From: a virus
IMG/VR virus record: IMGVR_UViG_3300019755_000002
Coordinates: 14,717-78,716 of that record
DNA length: 64,000 nucleotides
Strand: one strand, 5' to 3'
Part shown: positions 20,625 to 30,600 of the stretch, piece by piece
Layout of the letters: every line of letters begins with the position of its first letter
Numbering within the stretch: position 1 is the stretch's first letter
Made by a program: the position numbers and the translations under genes
Notes under the pieces: model-generated
The model's database searches: none
The model's input: the letters and a program-made list of their open reading frames with translations, nothing else
What the model was told of the DNA's origin: nothing

Positions 20625-21704
20625 ATGAAAACATTCATAATGCCCGAGGGCAGCCGAGTTATAAACTTCCCTTTATCTTCTTTAGGGCCAAACTCCACCT
20701 TAGATAAATACCTTCAACATTGCTATATTCTTGGAGACCCACATTTAGGTCGTAAATTCAAAACGGGGGTTCCTATTCATCGTCTTGGTGATCGTGAACA
20801 AGCCGTCAAAGTTGATTTTCAAGAAAGTCTTATTGGCCTTAAACCAGGTAGAAAATTCCACGTTTGTATGGGGGACTTGTTTGATAAGTTTACCGTACCA
20901 AATGAATGGGTAGAATTCGCTTATCAAACATACCGTGAAGCAGCGTTAAAGTTCCCTGCAGTGACGTTCATTGTTATTCAAGGAAACCATGACGCATCAA
21001 AAGATAAATCTAAAGTAAGTTCTTTTGAAATATTCGCTGAGCTTTGTAAGCCAATAAGCAACATTAAAGTGCTAACGGAACACCCAATATTTATCCCACA
21101 CGATCAATTAAACTTTCTATTCGTTCCGTGGACTCCTTTTAAAACAACGTCTGAACTCTTAGCTTTAGAATTTCCACTATTAAACAAAGTTAAAAATTCA
21201 CCCTTTGTAGCTTTCGGCCATTGGGACACAAAAAGCCACGGTGAAGATATTTGTGAGAACATCATCCCTCACGACCATTTTACTCGTGATTGCTGTGACG
21301 GGGTGGTTACTGGTCATTATCATAAACCCGAAAGAACTATGTTAAAGAAAATTGAATTGTTTGTTACTGGGTCAATGCAGCCATACGCACATGGTGAAGA
21401 AGCCGACGACGTAGATAATCCTATGTACGTTACTGACACTAAAGCAAACGTCGAAGCAAAACTTATTGAAGACGAAACCTTTTATAAAAACAAAGTGCTT
21501 AGGGTATTGGTTGAACAAGACGACACACCGTTAGCGGGTATTGATTGCTATGCACTCACCCACAAAAAGACCGCGCCGTTAGGAGAAGAAAACGACGTGG
21601 ACGTGGAAATTGACGACTTTGATATTAAGGGGTTATTCAACAGCGTAATGACAGAAAAAGGCGTTTCCTCTGAACTAACGCAAGAACTATGGGCTAAATT
21701 ATGA
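20625..21704 (+). CDS. Mre11/SbcD-like metallophosphoesterase nuclease
   Basis: 'GDPHLG', 'GDLFD', 'GNHD', 'GHYH'. Confidence 0.88.
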   Translation: MKTFIMPEGSRVINFPLSSLGPNSTLDKYLQHCYILGDPHLGRKFKTGVPIHRLGDREQAVKVDFQESLIGLKPGRKFHVCMGDLFDKFTVPNEWVEFAYQTYREAALKFPAVTFIVIQGNHDASKDKSKVSSFEIFAELCKPISNIKVLTEHPIFIPHDQLNFLFVPWTPFKTTSELLALEFPLLNKVKNSPFVAFGHWDTKSHGEDICENIIPHDHFTRDCCDGVVTGHYHKPERTMLKKIELFVTGSMQPYAHGEEADDVDNPMYVTDTKANVEAKLIEDETFYKNKVLRVLVEQDDTPLAGIDCYALTHKKTAPLGEENDVDVEIDDFDIKGLFNSVMTEKGVSSELTQELWAKL

Positions 21705-23749
21705 TTTCAAAAATTAAATATAAAATTGACTTTAGTAATGGGAAATCTCGAAGTAACGATGCGGAGTTATTAAACGGCAGCACCATGATCACGGGTAAAA
21801 ATGGTCGCGGTAAAAGCCTAAATCTTGAAATGATTGCCTTCACATTATTTGGCACCGTAGCGCTACGTGGAAAAACGGGGGATTACTCAAGAATAAAATC
21901 GCAAATAGATGTTACCATTAAAAATACGCCCTATGTTATTAAGCGTACTAAGAGTGGTGCCGACGTGTTAAATGTCGATGGAGAGCCACTAGCAACGGGT
22001 CATAAAGCCGTTAACGAATGGATAATATCTACATTAGGTTATGGTTATGATGTCTTCCGTATCGCGCATTGGTGCGCTCAAGGAGACATTCAAGCGTTAG
22101 CTAATATGTTACCAACACAGCGTAAGCAAATGATTGATGATGTTGCGGGCTTAACGCAAATGGACGGCCTGATTAAGCTTGTAGGTGAAGAGGCTAAAAT
22201 TTATCGTGCGGGGATTACCGCTGCTGAAAGTGTCTTAATAAAACCCACCAAACCCACCAAACCCGAAGGTCAGAGCGAAGGGGATTTAAACATAGGCCTA
22301 GAACAACTTGAAGTTGAACGTTTAGACTATTTAAAGCTGGAGGCGGAAGTTAATAGCTTACCCCCTTTAGTCGAACCTGTTAGACCAACCGAACCTCAAC
22401 CGTTAACATTACCAGCGCAACCAGAGGAATTAACGGTCGAATTGTTAGAAATTGTACCCGTGACTATTCCAGAAAATTTAGCGGGGCAAGATATTTTTCA
22501 AGTGATTAGGGACTTAAATGAACGACGTCAACAGCTAGAATCCAACCAACGGGATTTATCCGCTATTAAGCAGCAGTTATTGACCGCACCACAGTATATT
22601 GTAGACATGATCCCAGACGTTGCCTTATTAACGCGAGAAGAACTGGAACGTCAGCATGAAGTTTATAAACAAGCGACGTTAAAGAAACAGCTTCTAGACC
22701 AAGGTGACGTTACGTGTCCCAACTGTAATGTCGCACACCCTTTAGCAAGTGACGCACTAAAGGAATACGAGAATGTTGACTTAAACATACTAAACTCAGC
22801 ACCTTTAAGTTTCCAAGACTTTGAACGTTGTCTTAAGTGGAAAGACTTGAATAGTCGCGTAGCAGAATTAGAAGCAACACTACAACCGTTACCAACAATC
22901 TTAATGTTATTAGAGCAATTTGAGCCTATTGCGGCACAATTAAACGCTAACGAAAATGCTGAGAAAACTAATGCGGAAAAAATTGCACAGCAAGCTAAAA
23001 GTAACGAACATAACTATCGCCAATGGCAGAACACTTGCCAAAGCCTTAAGCAAAGCCACGACAATAGTGTGGCGCAGTTTAACGCTAATTTAGAAAACTT
23101 TGCCAAAGCCTGTGAAGCGCATAAAGCCGAGGTAATTAGACAAGAGCAAATAGTTAGCACTTGGCACCAATGGGGAACGGATTTCAAACTAGAGAACCAA
23201 GCGTTAATCTCGGAGGTAAATAAAGCACTTCAAACTTGGGCGACGTATCACACCCTTGTTGATGTTTATAATAAACAGCTAACATCATACGAATTAGCTA
23301 AGAAAAGCATAGATAACGACAAAGCCCTACTTGAAGACCGAAACAAGGCTAAAGCGGCCTTGACGGAAATAAAAGCACGAGTAAAAACGTACATCGTGCC
23401 AAGCCTTAATAAAGTCGCTAGTTATCTACTTAGTGAAATGACAGGCGGTGAGCATAGCAACGTTGTTATTGATGAAAACTTTGAAGTGGACGTGGACGGC
23501 CAACCGCTTAGAACGCTGTCCGGATCGGGAAAAGACATCACAAATTTAGCCATTCGTATTGGTCTTGGAAGAATTCTCACGCATAAAGTTTTACCCGTAA
23601 TGATGTTGGATGAAATTGACGCCGCTATGGACGAAGAACGTGCTCAATATACTTGGGATTGCATACAAAAAATAACGCCCCGAATTGGTCAAGTCCTACA
23701 AGTTAGCCATAAAGATTTACCTGCTCAACATAGAATGGAGGTGGTTTAG
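21701..23749 (+). CDS. Rad50/SbcC-like ATPase
   Basis: 'GKNGRGKS', Q-loop 'AQG', central zinc hook 'CPNC', 'LSGSG', 'LDEID', 'VSH'. Confidence 0.9.
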   Translation: MISKIKYKIDFSNGKSRSNDAELLNGSTMITGKNGRGKSLNLEMIAFTLFGTVALRGKTGDYSRIKSQIDVTIKNTPYVIKRTKSGADVLNVDGEPLATGHKAVNEWIISTLGYGYDVFRIAHWCAQGDIQALANMLPTQRKQMIDDVAGLTQMDGLIKLVGEEAKIYRAGITAAESVLIKPTKPTKPEGQSEGDLNIGLEQLEVERLDYLKLEAEVNSLPPLVEPVRPTEPQPLTLPAQPEELTVELLEIVPVTIPENLAGQDIFQVIRDLNERRQQLESNQRDLSAIKQQLLTAPQYIVDMIPDVALLTREELERQHEVYKQATLKKQLLDQGDVTCPNCNVAHPLASDALKEYENVDLNILNSAPLSFQDFERCLKWKDLNSRVAELEATLQPLPTILMLLEQFEPIAAQLNANENAEKTNAEKIAQQAKSNEHNYRQWQNTCQSLKQSHDNSVAQFNANLENFAKACEAHKAEVIRQEQIVSTWHQWGTDFKLENQALISEVNKALQTWATYHTLVDVYNKQLTSYELAKKSIDNDKALLEDRNKAKAALTEIKARVKTYIVPSLNKVASYLLSEMTGGEHSNVVIDENFEVDVDGQPLRTLSGSGKDITNLAIRIGLGRILTHKVLPVMMLDEIDAAMDEERAQYTWDCIQKITPRIGQVLQVSHKDLPAQHRMEVV

Positions 23750-23750
23750 T

Positions 23751-23993
23751 ATGTTTATTAGTGAAGAATGGTTGACGTTGTTTCTCTTAATGTCAATTTT
23801 GGGGATGCTTTATTTCTTTATCTTAGCCTTTAAGCTCGGCAAGCGGTTAGTTTATTGGGTTTGCTATTGGTATACACATTTTACGTGCAACCATATTTAT
23901 GTACCAGGTAAACACAGTCATAAAGGTTCGGTTTTATTTTGCATAAACTGCTATCGAACTAAAGAAAACAGGAAAGAGGTAAATGGGAGGTAG
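23751..23993 (+). CDS. membrane protein with a small Cys/His cluster
   Basis: TM segment, then C.H...C..C. Confidence 0.55.
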
Positions 23994-24243
23994 ACAACAA
24001 ATGAAAACAGGTCTTGCAGCCATTCTTGCCATAGCCGCTAGCGGCGTCTCTGTTCAGCAAGAGATAGAAAACGCCACTCGAAAGTCGAGTAATCGTGTGT
24101 GGAAACCTATAGCCTCAAAAGCCAAGGGGTATTCGTTCAACGACGCTGGGGTGGCTAATAAGCTATCAAGGGTTGGACGTAACGAACCCTGTCCTTGTGG
24201 CTGCGGTAAGAAATTCAAATATTGTACTTTAATTAAGGAATAA
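23983..24243 (+). CDS. SEC-C motif protein
   Basis: '[18 protein letters not shown]'. Confidence 0.85.
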
Positions 24244-24245
24244 AA

Positions 24246-24404
24246 ATGTTAGAACTTTTGGAATACGTCACTAGCGGTTTTTGGGTTTTCATAGGCTCAA
24301 TAATTATTATACCGTTATTCTTACTTTGTACTGGCTGGGCTATCAATGCCTTACTGCTAGGTTTGTGGGGAAAGAAATGCTCAGACATAGATATTTCACT
24401 TTAA
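24246..24404 (+). CDS. small membrane protein (52 aa)
   Basis: Hand translation MLELLEYVTSGFWVFIG...; AAGGA RBS. Confidence 0.55.
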   Translation: MLELLEYVTSGFWVFIGSIIIIPLFLLCTGWAINALLLGLWGKKCSDIDISL

Positions 24405-24417
24405 GGGGTTGTTAGTG
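24397..24417 (-). mobile_element. half attC site (R''/L'' remnant)
   Basis: Minus strand CACTAAC-AACCC-CTTAAAG has the same spacing as the full sites. Confidence 0.45.
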
Positions 24418-24438
24418 TTTAAATTTAGGAGAACAATT

Positions 24439-24740
24439 ATGGATATGTATGGATTTATTGAAAAAATCAATCGTGAAGTTTTGCACCCTTTGGGTTTGGC
24501 CATGACTAGAAACCCAGAAACGGCAGCAGCGATGGTCTTCTTATTTCGGATGATGGTGAATGGGAGAACGCGCCTGAAATGAAGATAAAAACAGAAGATG
24601 CAATGGAATTAGGCTTTGCAAGAGACAACCGAAAAAGGCGCAGGCAAATGCGTAGGAATGCCCAGGCATTATTTGCGGCTGGTGGTTCTATAATGACTGT
24701 AGCTGCAAAGTGGAATTTAGAGCAAGCAAGAGCCGTATAA
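24439..24740 (+). pseudogene. frameshifted cassette gene
   Basis: MDMYGFIEKINREVLHPLGLAMTRNPET continues as (G)SSDGLLISDDGEWE... only after a 1-nt shift near 24522; that frame stops in the attC core. Confidence 0.6.
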
Positions 24741-24836
24741 CCTTTGCGTTAAGCGGTGAGTGAAAGTTAGTGTGTTTTTGGCTAACTGTAAGGAATCCGA
24801 TGAGCGCAGCGAATGAATTTGAACGCGTTGTTAGAA
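24735..24836 (-). mobile_element. integron attC recombination site 1 (102 bp)
   Basis: Minus strand TTCTAAC-AACGC-GTTCAAA...CTTAAC-GCAAAG-GTTATAC; 5/6-nt spacers, extra base in L'', internal hairpin. Confidence 0.85.
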
Positions 24837-24864
24837 TTGGCGTTAACTAAAAGGTATAATTAAA

Positions 24865-25182
24865 ATGGAACAAGCTTTAGCGGCAGTTTACGCAGAGGGT
24901 GAAAAGGCTTTTCATACTGGTAGTGTGAACCCCTACCCAAACACAGATCAGTACTGGGGTGAATGGACGGCAGGATGGACGGCTGAAAAATTAAAAGCAG
25001 AAAATAAAAACAAGGTAGAAACTATTGAAAATATAGGTCTATCAAAAAACAAACAAAAAGCAATTAAGCAATTTTCGGAAATGATAGCCAAAGATTGTGC
25101 TGAATTGATTGAAACGGTAATAGAAAAACGAGTGAGAATGTACGCTACTCATTTAGCTGAAATAATGCAAAAAGATGATTAG
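24865..25182 (+). CDS. cassette-borne hypothetical protein
   Basis: Lies between attC1 and attC2; N-terminus 'AY.EG..AF...NPY......W..GW' is loosely RMF-like. Confidence 0.7.
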   Translation: MEQALAAVYAEGEKAFHTGSVNPYPNTDQYWGEWTAGWTAEKLKAENKNKVETIENIGLSKNKQKAIKQFSEMIAKDCAELIETVIEKRVRMYATHLAEIMQKDD

Positions 25183-25185
25183 TCA

Positions 25186-25279
25186 TTCTAACCTTTGCGT
25201 TAAGCGGTGAGTGAAAGTTGGGAACCAACTGTAACGAGTCCGACGAATGAAATGAGTGAATTTAAACGCGTTGTTAGTG
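25186..25279 (-). mobile_element. integron attC recombination site 2 (94 bp)
   Basis: Near-identical to attC1; minus strand CACTAAC-AACGC-GTTTAAA...CTTAAC-GCAAAG-GTTAGAA. Confidence 0.85.
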
Positions 25280-25306
25280 ACGCATTACGGGAATACTGGA
25301 GATAAT

Positions 25307-25561
25307 ATGCCAATTACAAAAGAGCAGCTAAAGGAAACTAAAGTTCCTTACTTAATAGTAGCTGACTGTAGAGCAGGAAAGAGAAAAGGACTACCTAAAA
25401 AAGAACAACCTAGCACCGTTGTTGGTTATTCAGTGAATGACCCCCTAGGTGTTGGTGGTGGTATTTTTGACACAAACCCATGTGTTTATTTTAAAAGTGG
25501 TGGATGGGTATTACTAAGCGACTTTGTGAAGAACCACTCTATTGTGAGTAATGCGCACTAA
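25307..25561 (+). CDS. cassette-borne hypothetical protein
   Basis: GGAG RBS before ATG 25307; TAA stop lies in the attC3 core CACTAAC. Confidence 0.7.
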   Translation: MPITKEQLKETKVPYLIVADCRAGKRKGLPKKEQPSTVVGYSVNDPLGVGGGIFDTNPCVYFKSGGWVLLSDFVKNHSIVSNAH

Positions 25562-25613
25562 CCTTTAACTTAAGCGGCAAGCTGTTTTTGTCACGTTGAA
25601 TTATTTGTTATGT
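25556..25613 (-). mobile_element. integron attC recombination site 3 (58 bp)
   Basis: Minus strand ACATAAC-AAATA-ATTCAAC...CTTAAG-TTAAAG-GTTAGTG. Confidence 0.8.
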
Positions 25614-25640
25614 TACCACGAAATAACGGAGATAAATATA

Positions 25641-26327
25641 ATGAAAACGACATACTGTAGTGATCGCGTTGAGCCTGTTGTTAGCTTTGCTGCTACACCA
25701 TTAAATACTGAATCAATGAGGCAGCACAGAGAAAGATGGTTAAACAGGATTCAAGAAGCGGAGAGTAAATTTAACATAATAGAGAATTGCGTTCATGAAA
25801 TACTAAACGACATAGAAGAGGATAAAATAACAACCTTAAAATCTGTTTATGATCGATTACTAATAGCGGTAAAGAAATCAAACTTAACCCCGACACCAGA
25901 AGCTAGAGTCGCAATGATTATTTATAGCGATGAATATGAAAAACAGTGCGGGGGATCAATGGATTTTTTTGATTCGCTAGATGAAGATAGAAAGCACCGA
26001 TGTAAATTGGTGGTGGCAACATTAAATAACCTATCAGCAACGGATAAGAAGGTGTTACTAACCGCTTTAAGAAGCAAGGGTTTTACGAAGAATAAAGTAT
26101 ACGCCGATAGCTTAGAAAAAAAACGTGAGTTTAATTCAGCAATAAAGTTAACGAGTCTAGGTCTTATTAATGGTGAGGTTACTTATGAACATACTAATGG
26201 CTATGCTGTAACTGGGTTTGGTAGAACTTGGGTTGACGGTAAGTCATGGAATAGTTTTAAAGGTGAGTTAACGAAAAAGGGGATCGAGGTGGCAAAAGTC
26301 CTTCTCCCCCACATTAGACCCGTTTAA
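25641..26327 (+). CDS. hypothetical protein (probable cassette-derived fusion)
   Basis: GGAG RBS before ATG 25641; reads through a half attC at 25664-25686. Confidence 0.65.
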   Translation: MKTTYCSDRVEPVVSFAATPLNTESMRQHRERWLNRIQEAESKFNIIENCVHEILNDIEEDKITTLKSVYDRLLIAVKKSNLTPTPEARVAMIIYSDEYEKQCGGSMDFFDSLDEDRKHRCKLVVATLNNLSATDKKVLLTALRSKGFTKNKVYADSLEKKREFNSAIKLTSLGLINGEVTYEHTNGYAVTGFGRTWVDGKSWNSFKGELTKKGIEVAKVLLPHIRPV

Positions 26328-26480: not shown

Positions 26481-26819
26481 ATGTCCGCGAATAACCACCA
26501 GCGTAGTCCTATACGCTTAGATTTAGTCCCTAATGACTTACTCACACCCGAAGACCTTTTTACCCTAACGGGTTACGAAGACCCAAAGTTTCAAGCCAAA
26601 GTCCTAAAAGAAAACAATATCTTTTACTTAAAAGTTAGACGAAACGAAATCCGTACTACCTGGTATCACATCAACAACCCCATACATTTACGCGTCCCCC
26701 ATTTGGCTCAGGCAGATGGTGGTGTCGGTTGGAATAAGAGTTTCCAACCTCGTGTGGATTCGGTTCCCAAACCAGATGCCACGGATATAGCAAGCACGTT
26801 AGAAGCGTATAATAATTAA
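26481..26819 (+). CDS. DUF4224-like / excisionase-like protein
   Basis: 'LLTPEDLFTLTGY..PKFQAKVLKENNIFY...TTWYHIN'. Confidence 0.7.
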   Translation: MSANNHQRSPIRLDLVPNDLLTPEDLFTLTGYEDPKFQAKVLKENNIFYLKVRRNEIRTTWYHINNPIHLRVPHLAQADGGVGWNKSFQPRVDSVPKPDATDIASTLEAYNN

Positions 26820-28353: not shown

Positions 28354-28950
28354 ATGAGCCATCAACAGATAAATCAAAGCTCAGGTAATGTTGAATACTA
28401 CACCTCTGAAGAACTACTTGTCTTAGTACGAGAAGTGTTGGGAACAATAGACCTCGACCCAGCAAGCTGCTCGTTAGCGAATGAAGTGGTAAAGGCAAAA
28501 AATATTTTTACCAAAGAGAACGACGGCCTAAGTCACTCTTGGTTTGGTAAAGTGTTTATGAACCACCCCTTCCATAAGGGAGAAAAACCGTGTAAGAAAA
28601 ACTGCAAAAAGAAAATTTGCCAACCGAGCAACGACCCTAAAAAACCTACGCGTGGTCATTGTATCGATTATGAAATCCCTGGCAATGCCATCTGGACGAA
28701 TAAACTTGCCGATGAATACTATAAGGGCAATATTGAAGAGGCTATTTGTATAACGTTCTCATCAATGTCTGAAGATTGGATGTGGCCGCTACTTCAAGAA
28801 GTGCAATGCTTCCCGCGCGGTAGAGTACATTATCGAAAGCCTGACGGTACAGTTGACCGACAAGCAACGAAAGGTAGTGTGTTAACTTACTTCGGTAAGA
28901 ATCCTGAGAAGTTCGAGGCCGTTTTCAGTGCTATAGGCAAAGTAAAATAA
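28354..28950 (+). CDS. phage DNA N6-adenine methyltransferase-like protein
   Basis: 'EYYT', 'IDLDPAS', 'DGL..SW.GKVFMNHPF' (NPPF variant). Confidence 0.8.
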   Translation: MSHQQINQSSGNVEYYTSEELLVLVREVLGTIDLDPASCSLANEVVKAKNIFTKENDGLSHSWFGKVFMNHPFHKGEKPCKKNCKKKICQPSNDPKKPTRGHCIDYEIPGNAIWTNKLADEYYKGNIEEAICITFSSMSEDWMWPLLQEVQCFPRGRVHYRKPDGTVDRQATKGSVLTYFGKNPEKFEAVFSAIGKVK

Positions 28951-28951
28951 G

Positions 28952-30259
28952 CTACCAAACTACACCACCATCCTTATCCACTGTTCTAGTGTCAGTAGAA
29001 GAATTGTCTAATTTACGCTCAGGCAGTGGTGAATTTAACAGTTCTTCTATACGTTCACCCCACTTATTATACGCTCGTGCTTGATCTGGAAGATAGGAGT
29101 TTAAATCATAAACATCTTCAACACCTGGGGTAGAGTGCCCCAACATTATCTCGGCAACGTGTGGTAACGTTATCTTTTCGCCCTTAATCTCTTTAGTCCA
29201 GTTGGTTCTAGCGGTTCTACGCAAGTCATGTATCGTCCAGTGAACCATCTTAACATTGAAGTTTTTAAGAATGTACGCATTGATGTTCTTGGGTATGTTT
29301 AAGTGTGACTGACCTTTAGCTTTATCACTAAACTTATCTGGCTTAGTAATGTTCGTAAAAACAAATTCCTTAGACCCACTTAGGGACAGGGCTTGCACGA
29401 TCAAAGGTTTAGAAAACTTAGTAATAGGACGGACAATGGGTAAATCCATAAATTCCCCTGTCTTATGTTCTTCAGGTAATAACGTCCACAGACCAGTATT
29501 AAAATCAAATTGCTTTGGATGTGAATTCGTCAACTCCCCTATTCGACAACCATAGTATAAACATAACAATACCTGTATCTTTGTCTTTGCTGCAGAACGT
29601 CCCAACGTAAGCGCCTTGAGAATATAAATTAACTCATCATCGGACAAAACTCTTTTTCTTTTCTTACGAACAATTTTCAAATCACGTCTAGCACTAAGAT
29701 GTGCTAACGGGTTTTCGTTAACGACACGTTTACTTATACCTCGAAAGTACACTTGTTTTAAAAAGGACAACATCACCCCCGTCATGTACGGTCTAAGCGG
29801 CATGTGTTTTTCAAAAAAATCCATCCAACGAGCGGTGCTTATTTGTGAAGCTGGATAGCCCCCCATTTCAGAAAGTACGTGCTGTTTCGTGGCCTTAACA
29901 TTTCGTGAAGCTTTTTTCTTAACGCCTTCCTGTTCGTACCAATCGAGAAATAAATCACTAAAGGTTGAATATCTACCCTCCCCAAATAAATTTTTTTCTT
30001 GGGTTATTTTTGGATGAACACCCTCAGCGATACCCTCTTTAATTTTGGCGTTTAACTTTCGGGCTTTACTAAGAGAAAGGTCGGGGTAAGTCCCTAAGTC
30101 TAGTCTAGAAGGTTTGCCCCCTTTTGGGTATCTATACCTTAGTTGAAAAACTATTTTCCCTTTTGCCGAGACTCGAACACTTAAGCCATTGCCGTCGCTC
30201 TTTTCATATGTGCGTCCTTTTTTATCAGGTGATTTTAACCAAGTGTCAGTTAAGGCCAC
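28952..30259 (-). CDS. int: tyrosine integrase with N-terminal arm-binding domain
   Basis: 'SDGNGLSVRVS..GK..F.LRYR....LGTYPDLSL..AR'; catalytic 'GCRIGE', 'HDLRRT', 'LGH', 'VY'. Confidence 0.93.
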   Translation of the reverse strand: MALTDTWLKSPDKKGRTYEKSDGNGLSVRVSAKGKIVFQLRYRYPKGGKPSRLDLGTYPDLSLSKARKLNAKIKEGIAEGVHPKITQEKNLFGEGRYSTFSDLFLDWYEQEGVKKKASRNVKATKQHVLSEMGGYPASQISTARWMDFFEKHMPLRPYMTGVMLSFLKQVYFRGISKRVVNENPLAHLSARRDLKIVRKKRKRVLSDDELIYILKALTLGRSAAKTKIQVLLCLYYGCRIGELTNSHPKQFDFNTGLWTLLPEEHKTGEFMDLPIVRPITKFSKPLIVQALSLSGSKEFVFTNITKPDKFSDKAKGQSHLNIPKNINAYILKNFNVKMVHWTIHDLRRTARTNWTKEIKGEKITLPHVAEIMLGHSTPGVEDVYDLNSYLPDQARAYNKWGERIEELLNSPLPERKLDNSSTDTRTVDKDGGVVW

Positions 30260-30277: not shown

Positions 30278-30600
30278 AATTGTGTACATATTTTCTCAAT
30301 ATTTCAGTTTAATAGTACCAAGATAAAAATATGTACATGGATATGTACACATATTTGTTGGCTGCAAGTGACCTAGTATGTCTTAATTTGACAGCCTTGA
30401 AAAGCACCTTTAGCCTAAGCCGCATAGATACTAGATTAAAGTTTTGTCCTGATGTGTCTTGATGTGTCGAAACAATACCATAGTCTCCACATGCTTTGTT
30501 TGAGAAAACATATTGCGAACACTTAAGGTATTGAATTAAAAACAAATAATAAAAAGCAATATTTGGAACTTTAAAAATATGTACCTGATTCTGTACACTT
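30278..30600. mobile_element. attP: arm-type repeats around a core homologous to the 3' end of host rlmD/rumA
   Basis: Repeats AAAAATATGTACATGGATATGTACAC (~30325-30350) and AAAAATATGTACCTGATTCTGTACAC (~30573-30598); minus strand 30511-30470 translates as MFSQTKHVETMVLF. Confidence 0.8.

Follow-up and report, generated by a model that had tools for sequence, protein, structure and literature searches.

We consider it likely that a cluster of repeats in a 64,000-nucleotide stretch of marine virus DNA (here called the window; bases 14717-78716 of the 78,716-base record IMGVR_UViG_3300019755_000002) is a short group of attC sites lacking an integron integrase (CALIN), carried in the accessory region of a temperate Alteromonadaceae phage and, as we infer, recombined by an integron integrase (IntI). 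The record has direct terminal repeats and is rated complete, and the window covers the larger part of this 78.7-kb genome of a temperate marine phage. The repeats lie in an accessory region bounded by an SbcC-like gene (21701-23749) and by a methyltransferase-like gene plus an integrase (28354-30259). An original prediction made from the letters of the window had described them as a CALIN-like array with reversed polarity. That description is supported by the layout of the sites, by the gene polarity in 28 of 28 phage intervals and by the lack of IntI; two intact sites 451 bp apart were found together with a third one, and intI is absent nearby.

The predicted attC-like repeats are present, and their arms could be located base by base. 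The left arm TAACCTTTGCGTTAAGCGG, a 19-mer that was also used for contig searches, occurs exactly at 24738 and 25189 and with three mismatches at 25559, always on the + strand, where 0.03 occurrences would be expected. The right arm AACGCGTTGTTAG is found at 24822 and 25265. Three sites had been called complete; two of them are intact (24735-24836 and 25185-25279), and the third (25556-25613, or extending to 25686) proved to be degenerate. The two half sites that had been proposed are plausible and are probably remnants, with four of the six + strand copies of GTTGTTAG in the 64 kb lying within 24408-25684; for the orphan arm at 24405-24417, a left-arm partner was looked for and not found. Each site is predicted to form an imperfect hairpin that consists of an R box (nnnTAAC / GTTAKnn), an unpaired 6/5-nt spacer, an L box containing a single bulged base, and a loop that varies. 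In the case of site 2, the minimum-energy fold of the + strand pairs the R and L boxes. The parts of the sites are as follows.

24735-24836, + strand: attC-type site 1, long form, bottom strand on the + strand (arm repeats, aadA7 signature, strand bias)
24735-24741, + strand: site 1 R box GTATAAC, predicted crossover at 24740/24741
24742-24747 and 24748-24756, + strand: site 1 spacer CTTTGC and L arm GTT-AAG-CGG
24765-24770 and 24782-24787, + strand: site 1 inner hairpin AGTTAG / CTAACT, followed by CCG at 24797-24799
24818-24820, 24821 and 24822-24824, + strand: site 1 TTT, bulged G and AAC
24825-24829 and 24830-24836, + strand: site 1 spacer GCGTT and R box GTTAGAA
25185-25279, + strand: attC-type site 2, long form, bottom strand on the + strand (arm repeats, fold, aadA7 signature, strand bias)
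25185-25192 and 25193-25198, + strand: site 2 R box ATTCTAAC, predicted crossover at 25191/25192, and spacer
25199-25207, + strand: site 2 GTT-AAG-CGG, followed by the inner hairpin AGTTGG 25216-25221 / CCAACT 25225-25230
25240-25242 and 25243-25260, + strand: site 2 CCG and 18-nt bulge
25261-25263 and 25264, + strand: site 2 TTT and bulged A
25265-25267, 25268-25272 and 25273-25279, + strand: site 2 AAC, GCGTT and R box GTTAGTG
25556-25686, + strand: attC-type site 3, degenerate (left-arm match; covariance model R1, described below, E 0.003 for 25556-25613)
25556-25577, + strand: site 3 left arm, TAAC at 25559-25562, predicted crossover at 25561/25562
25607-25611, + strand: near right-arm candidate of site 3, GTTAT end, giving the short-form reading 25556-25613
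25674-25685, + strand: far right-arm candidate of site 3, CCTGTTGTTAGC, giving a 126-nt 'split' form, a type also seen in other phages, in which the loop includes the ribosome-binding site and ATG (25641) of the next gene
24405-24417, + strand: orphan right-arm remnant GGGGTTGTTAGTG, directly after the stop of the open reading frame (ORF) 24246-24404

Sites 1 and 2 were compared with attC(aadA7), the IntI1 reference substrate of class 1 integrons. The bottom strand of attC(aadA7) reads TAAC, 6 nt, ATT-AAG-CCG ... CGG-CTT-G-AAT, 5 nt, GTTA (Table S3 of Qi et al. 2023, PMC9892861), and its spacers are GCTTGA and GAATT (PMC9892861). The layout of sites 1 and 2 on the + strand is identical to this (TAAC, 6 nt, GTT-AAG-CGG ... 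CCG..TTT-G/A-AAC, 5 nt, GTTA), although they are longer, at 89-97 nt versus 60 nt. The spacer asymmetry that had been predicted consists of CTTTGC (6 nt) on the 5' side and GCGTT (5 nt) on the 3' side, as in the aadA7 bottom strand, and the predicted extra base is G 24821 in site 1 and A 25264 in site 2, in both cases on the 3' arm of the + strand. Because the extra base and the 6/5 spacers on the + strand match the aadA7 bottom strand, the canonical top strand corresponds to the minus strand, as the prediction had it. The R boxes are inverted and have an AAC/GTT core (RYYYAAC ... GTTRRRY), with GTATAAC/GTTAGAA in site 1 and TTCTAAC/GTTAGTG in site 2.

A signature defined a priori from aadA7 alone (TAAC, N5-6, 3 bp, 3 bp ... 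3 bp, N1, 3 bp, N5, GTTA) matches sites 1 and 2 on the + strand, and shuffled sequences gave ~1 match per window. Applied to a genuine chromosomal integron, the signature yielded 86 matches on the bottom strand and 0 on the other strand, and in the phage loci it matched at ~46 places, nearly all of them on the gene strand. A third match in the window was observed at 24180-24251 (+), just upstream of the array. It lies in the SEC-C-motif ORF 23983-24243, spans the start of ORF 24246-24404 and does not have the conserved spacers of the family; it may be a chance match, ~1 being expected per window.

A further comparison made use of two covariance models. Model R1 was built from nine short-form sites of other phage contigs only. 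It matched attC1, attC2 and a third attC site of Pseudoalteromonas phage PH101 with E values of 0.001-0.005, and these matches fall on the strand that was cloned by Qi et al. as the bottom strand, which is the coding strand. On the window, R1 found site 3 (25556-25613) with an E value of 0.003; since it represents short forms, it cannot span the long sites 1 and 2 and reports their left arms alone. IntI1 recombined attC1 and attC2 of PH101 into attI1 at frequencies not significantly different from those of aadA7 (Qi et al. 2023, PMC9892861), with recombination at the expected junction between G and TT (PMC9892861). PH101 resembles the phage studied here in being a marine phage that has an attC array without IntI and uses the bottom strand as the coding strand, and its sites share the loop motif GCGG..AGCGnAG..AGTCCG with the phage family. 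However, PH101 is an unrelated phage of 132 kb, whereas the phage here is temperate, measures 78.7 kb and is distinguished by CTTTGC/GCGTT spacers and by two long forms whose central hairpin resembles the one in chromosomal attC sites. The exact site type was absent from PH101 and also from the 78-kb temperate Pseudoalteromonas phage KB12-38, in whose accessory region no TAACCTTT arm was found.

The long forms have counterparts in bacterial chromosomes. Their core (AAGCGG, N6, AAAGTTRG ... CYAACTGT) is also present in attC sites of 7 of 201 Alteromonadaceae genomes, and IntI was found in all five of these seven genomes that were tested. For one of them (G142), the core matches lie inside a 44-kb array adjoining intI, on the bottom strand of the array. 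The attC sites of sedentary chromosomal integrons of this family (G142 C1:1024668-1062022, with intI at 1068458, and a Paraglaciecola metagenome-assembled integron in L065) share the register of sites 1 and 2, namely TAAC, spacer, GTT-AAG-CGG, hairpin GTTGG..CCAACTGT, CCG, TTT, bulged base, AAC, spacer and GTTA, and their bottom strand has a G.T wobble at the pair where the phage sites have one. Unlike the phage sites, they have 5/5 spacers (GCCnn / nnCTT), no 18-nt bulge and genes on the top strand (18/20). The class 1 integrons also differ from the phage array: on their top strand the gene comes before the site, and the integrase, attI and the Pc promoter are adjacent. That the window sites have an attC architecture and appear to be kin of proven attC sites is thus supported by sequence comparison.

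Sites of the window type are shared by no fewer than 17 other phage contigs. Seven further IMG/VR contigs contain an exact copy of the 19-nt left arm, and a gapped pattern added nine family contigs. Using conserved sequence alone, the rule TAACCYTN ... GTTGTYAK collected 47 elements in 18 sources (the window and 17 loci), all of which are on the gene strand. TAAC and GTTA are invariant across the 47 elements, and the length of the family members ranges from 43 to 130 nt with unchanged arms and a variable terminal structure. The L-box arms pair far better with their own partners than with those of other elements, and the observed mean was reached by none of 10,000 permutations. There are 10 distinct perfectly paired L-box types in which five positions change in step (for example, GCGTT/AACGC, GCAAT/ATTGC, GCCAT/ATGGC, GCATT/AATGC, GCTAT/ATAGC, ATAAA/TTTAT and GGCAT/ATGCC). 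A second helix (AAG/CTT, AAA/TTT, ATG/CAT) and a third one (CGG/CCG, CAG/CTG, AGG/CCT, CCG/CGG, GGG/CCC) covary as well, and the bulged base invariably follows 3 bp of helix and belongs to the 3' arm of the gene strand. In the paired columns, the gene strand contains 38 G.T versus 8 A.C pairs, and it was the better-folding strand in 27 of 34 elements (p 4e-5). The excess of G.T and the better folding indicate that the gene strand is the strand selected to fold. Different genes read the GTTGTTA arm in different frames, and therefore the conservation resides in the nucleic acid and not in a protein. A small encoded peptide was considered as the nature of the site and was rejected, as the frame is broken in site 1 and in locus L012 and the GTTGTTA frames differ.

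Rfam returned nothing relevant, either for the whole window at gathering thresholds or for 24200-25900 at E values up to 10, and megablast and blastn against cultured phages revealed no relatives of the region or of the site. The exact 19-mer was detected in eight contigs of a species-representative genome collection, and three of those contain family-like elements.

Within the family, a 'split' sub-family of constant length (~126 nt) could be distinguished. It comprises 25559-25686 of the window, L007 3558-3433 (-), L009 2875-3001, L010 70-194 and 458-581, L016 5189-5060 (-) and L021 10407-10533. In these forms, the ribosome-binding site and the ATG of the next gene lie in the loop, and the 3' arm with its L and R boxes is read as approximately codons 8-15.

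The orientation of the genes relative to the sites sets the phage arrays apart from bacterial integrons. The reversed polarity that had been predicted for the window was found throughout the phage loci: in 28 of 28 intervals, the site (bottom) strand carries the longest ORF, versus 2 of 20 in the chromosomal integron of G142. The other 18 of 20 intervals of this control show the canonical layout, with the longest ORF opposite the bottom strand. All annotated genes of PH101 are on the strand of the cloned bottom strands. Reversed polarity is a property of the whole phage site family. Instead of an ORF on the top strand followed by attC, the phage cassettes have ORFs on the bottom strand that come after attC. 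The recombinogenic bottom strand, defined by the bulged base on the 3' arm, is the gene-encoding strand, and because of this a phage cassette consists of the site first and the gene after it, the reverse of the order in bacterial integrons.

Evidence for cassette movement was obtained by comparing the cassette content of the phage loci. The shuffling proposed in the original prediction was borne out by one cassette that is common to two phages with unrelated neighbours. The block (L004:9343-9918 versus L008:7462-8039) is 92.6% identical and has unrelated flanks; it starts at the TAAC of one site, includes two ORFs and ends in TAACCTTTA of the next site, and its ends GTTAGGCGG and CCGCCTAAC are complementary over 9 bp. 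For approximately 10 more locus pairs, homology starts 0-4 nt from TAAC. Of 28 cassettes, 15 have ends whose complementarity extends 3-8 nt past GTTA/TAAC, compared with an expectation of 0.4 cassettes. Breakpoints at TAAC and complementary ends are what excision of circles with cleavage between AA and C predicts, and it follows from them that each site travels with the gene downstream of it. Site 2 of the window is 90-92% identical to sites in three other contigs that have different neighbours.

The window itself contains two cassettes, a unit upstream of site 1 and a longer ORF downstream.

24439-24740, + strand: unit upstream of site 1, with ORFs 24439-24582 (47 aa, phrog_3954 / weak DUF7415) and 24579-24740 (53 aa)
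24741-25191, + strand: cassette 1, 451 bp, site 1 followed by ORF 24865-25182 (105 aa, helical, no family)
25192-25561, + strand: cassette 2, 370 bp, site 2 followed by ORF 25307-25561 (84 aa, no family)
25641-26327, + strand: 228-aa ORF that begins in the loop of site 3 and reads through the far right arm, no family

The ends of both cassettes are complementary, in agreement with the prediction. For cassette 1, GTTAGAAT (24830) pairs with ATTCTAAC (25185) over 8 nt, the complementary ends being GTTAGAAT and ATTCTAA(C). For cassette 2, GTTAGTGACGCATTAC (25273) pairs with GTAATGCGCACTAAC (25548-25562) over 15/16 nt with one extra base. Two stop codons had been placed in the core, and indeed TAA 24738-24740 and TAA 25559-25561 are part of a TAAC, the former ending ORF 24579-24740 in the core of site 1 and the latter being the stop of ORF 25307-25561 in the TAAC that follows it. 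A third stop, TAG 25180-25182, is situated 6 nt ahead of the core.

Homologues of the 105-aa and 84-aa proteins are few and unnamed, and a PADLOC search with the cassette proteins gave no match. Relatives of the 105-aa protein were sought among viral contigs and none were found; its predicted fold, one short and one long helix, was uninformative. Relatives of the 84-aa protein were found in four viral loci, in which attC-type sites are absent beside the gene. Another phage that encodes a relative of the 84-aa protein (L083) shows a different junction repeat, TAATGCAC, directly after stop codons at ~2470-2500 and 2750-2960, which recalls the ends GTAATGCGCAC / GTGACGCATTAC of cassette 2. Weak sigma-70-like matches follow each site of the window (24837-24866, 25277-25306 and 25613-25642, all +), and their -10 boxes overlap an A+T-rich stretch ahead of the ATG. 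A promoter and terminator scan of the region gave counts at chance level.

The phage and its host were placed by comparison. The nearest relative is Pseudoalteromonas phage KB12-38, whose primase/helicase is 65% identical to the 1165-aa counterpart of the phage studied here. Because a probable attP core matches 74 of 401 genomes of the family, the host probably belongs to the Alteromonadaceae; the core is identical in 44 of 44 nt in one genome (G171) and 83-98% identical in 73 more of the 401 searched. The two features concerned are listed below.

28952-30259, - strand: phage integrase of the P4 type with Arm-DNA-bind_3 and Phage_integrase domains (profile matches), not an integron integrase
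30470-30513, strand unspecified: probable attP core (match to Alteromonadaceae genomes, which served to place the host)

As the prediction had stated, the phage has no IntI, and TIGR02249 gave no match in the complete 78.7-kb genome. Its only tyrosine recombinase is the P4-type integrase with the arm-binding domain, and a complete integron with intI, attI and Pc was not found in it. A search of the array-bearing phage genomes revealed no IntI, and neither a serine recombinase nor a Y1 HUH transposase was found in five of them, the window phage included. Tyrosine recombinases are altogether missing from three array-bearing phage genomes with completeness ratings of 99-100%. Among genomes sampled from the host family, 68 of 101 have IntI, as do four of the five whose attB match is best. 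Given these frequencies and the use of the related PH101 sites as IntI1 substrates (PMC9892861), host IntI is the simplest candidate enzyme for the phage sites and is probably the one that the array uses. The phage site pool looks distinct from the host arrays, judging from five candidate host genomes without phage-type sites and from the rarity of the 19-mer in the genome collection.

According to the proposed mechanism, IntI would bind the folded bottom strand in a cell that contains an integron integrase and a prophage or a replicating phage. The enzyme would cut between the A and the C of TAAC at the 5' end of the site, and whole cassettes would leave as circles or swap with other attC sites. 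The outcome would be a pool of back-to-front cassettes across marine phages that could be expressed by read-through from the phage early operon. We infer that IntI is the enzyme and that the array of the window phage is still active.

Several results weigh against this reading. The stability of single-copy DNA folds was no better than that of shuffled sequences (z about -1), and an arms-only energy scan of every TAAC..GTTA pair did not single out the sites. Model R2, built from 20 attC sites of one chromosomal integron (G142), matched neither site 1 nor site 2 and reported site 3 with an E value of 3.3, and nhmmer with the R2 alignment found nothing significant; R2 is narrow (effective sequence number 1.56), and sites 1 and 2 carry the 18-nt bulge. 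The L-box pairing of site 3 is weak under both readings of its right arm, and some 'split' forms are poor in this respect, too. Phage-type sites (R1) were found in none of five candidate host genomes. The hairpins also occur on the mRNA strand, where a role as RNA is possible. Since single folds are no better than shuffles, the case rests on covariation, strand bias and homology with known attC sites, and energy alone is not diagnostic.

An RNA role is the core of one alternative, in which the hairpins are attC descendants whose main function is now RNA or regulatory punctuation of the early genes (for example as sites of processing, as weak terminators or in the control of translation), and in which the genes are shuffled by homologous recombination at the 19-nt arm. 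Shuffling of that kind has been proposed for the promoter-early stem-loop (PeSL) repeats of T4-type phages, which carry a promoter. PeSLs are repeated intergenic stem-loops that flank small variable early genes, like the array here; unlike the sites here, they are not known to have the R box, spacer, L box and bulge design or complementary cassette ends. The location of all sites on the mRNA strand would suit RNA punctuation, as would the G.T bias, which fits a folded transcript as well as folded single-stranded DNA, and the identity of spacer and left arm in unrelated phages. The stops in TAAC and the split forms with the ribosome-binding site and ATG of the next gene in the loop point in the same direction, and so do the weak -10-like boxes after each site, although promoter-like matches are not above chance. 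However, homologous recombination does not predict complementary, nonconserved bases next to GTTA/TAAC, yet these were found in 15 of 28 cassettes, nor does it predict that breakpoints are stacked at TAAC. The same bottom-strand wobble is present in a bacterial integron whose bottom strand is not transcribed as mRNA, and no Rfam family matches. On balance, we regard RNA punctuation as unlikely.

The sites could also be recombined by another enzyme, such as a tyrosine recombinase of the host (Xer-type or other) or a phage protein that has gone unrecognised. The P4-type integrase encoded 3.3 kb away in the phage, and the failure to find the phage-type site family in the arrays of candidate hosts (five genomes), speak for such an enzyme. 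We nevertheless give it a low probability: three 99-100% complete array phages lack a tyrosine recombinase, none of five has a serine or HUH enzyme, and the layout equals that of an IntI substrate base for base (R box, 6/5 spacer, bulge after 3 bp). Moreover, the sister sites in PH101 were recombined by IntI1 at the G/TT junction (PMC9892861). It seems similarly doubtful to us that the array in the window phage is an inert relic that was picked up once and is decaying without current exchange, even though there are just two intact sites beside a degenerate one and an orphan arm, and sites of this kind are missing from the corresponding region of KB12-38, the nearest cultured relative. No structural feature has been lost from sites 1 and 2, the ends of their cassettes are still complementary, and site 2 closely resembles sites in three contigs with different neighbours. 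The gene polarity is of the phage type and not of the bacterial type, which argues against an unmodified fragment of a host array.

Integrons are known from bacteria as gene-capture devices, and attC clusters usable by IntI1 have been demonstrated in a small number of phages (PMC9892861). Phage CALINs have thus been published already, with 17 detected in 10,705 phage genomes (PMC9892861). In that study, the PH101 cassettes were described as typical in direction, the reversed polarity went unremarked, and cassette exchange between phages was not analysed (PMC9892861). A literature search found no other report of attC arrays in phage genomes and no description of a systematic reversal of phage cassette polarity. 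What is added here is that the sites constitute a large family spread over many marine phage contigs, that whole cassettes have moved between phages with cuts at the IntI crossover point and that the cassettes are built the opposite way to bacterial ones. If host IntI is the enzyme, phages would use bacterial recombination to diversify their accessory genes, possibly including counter-defence genes, and integron cassettes could also travel between bacteria and phages. The integron integrase system is switched on by the SOS response.

A broader proposal can be advanced tentatively, and we lean slightly to the doubtful side in taking its three parts together. Marine phages may maintain a separate pool of back-to-front cassettes whose attC family differs from the one in the chromosomal arrays of their hosts, and unrelated phages may trade these cassettes via host IntI. 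The reversal would let early transcription express every cassette; at a bacterial attI, such a cassette would face away from Pc and be silent. In some cassettes, the site loop and the 3' arm may have become the ribosome-binding site, the start codon and the first codons of the gene.

Some minor observations concern the neighbourhood of the array and the control integron. An excisionase-like DUF4224 protein is encoded at 26481-26819 (+), at a distance of 2 kb from the integrase, which is on the other strand; the excisionase of KB12-38 directly precedes the integrase. The 86-aa protein encoded at 23983-24243 (+) has a C-terminal SEC-C zinc motif and a weak PADLOC match (E 4e-7) to the C terminus of PDC-S12, a PADLOC candidate defence protein. 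In the G142 integron (L080-L082), a 24-nt A+T-rich element (17% G+C) surfaced as identical weak R1 matches. It is located on the minus strand in at least 17 copies within the cassette array (for example, L082 711-734, 1393-1416 and 1735-1758), on the strand opposite the attC bottom strand.

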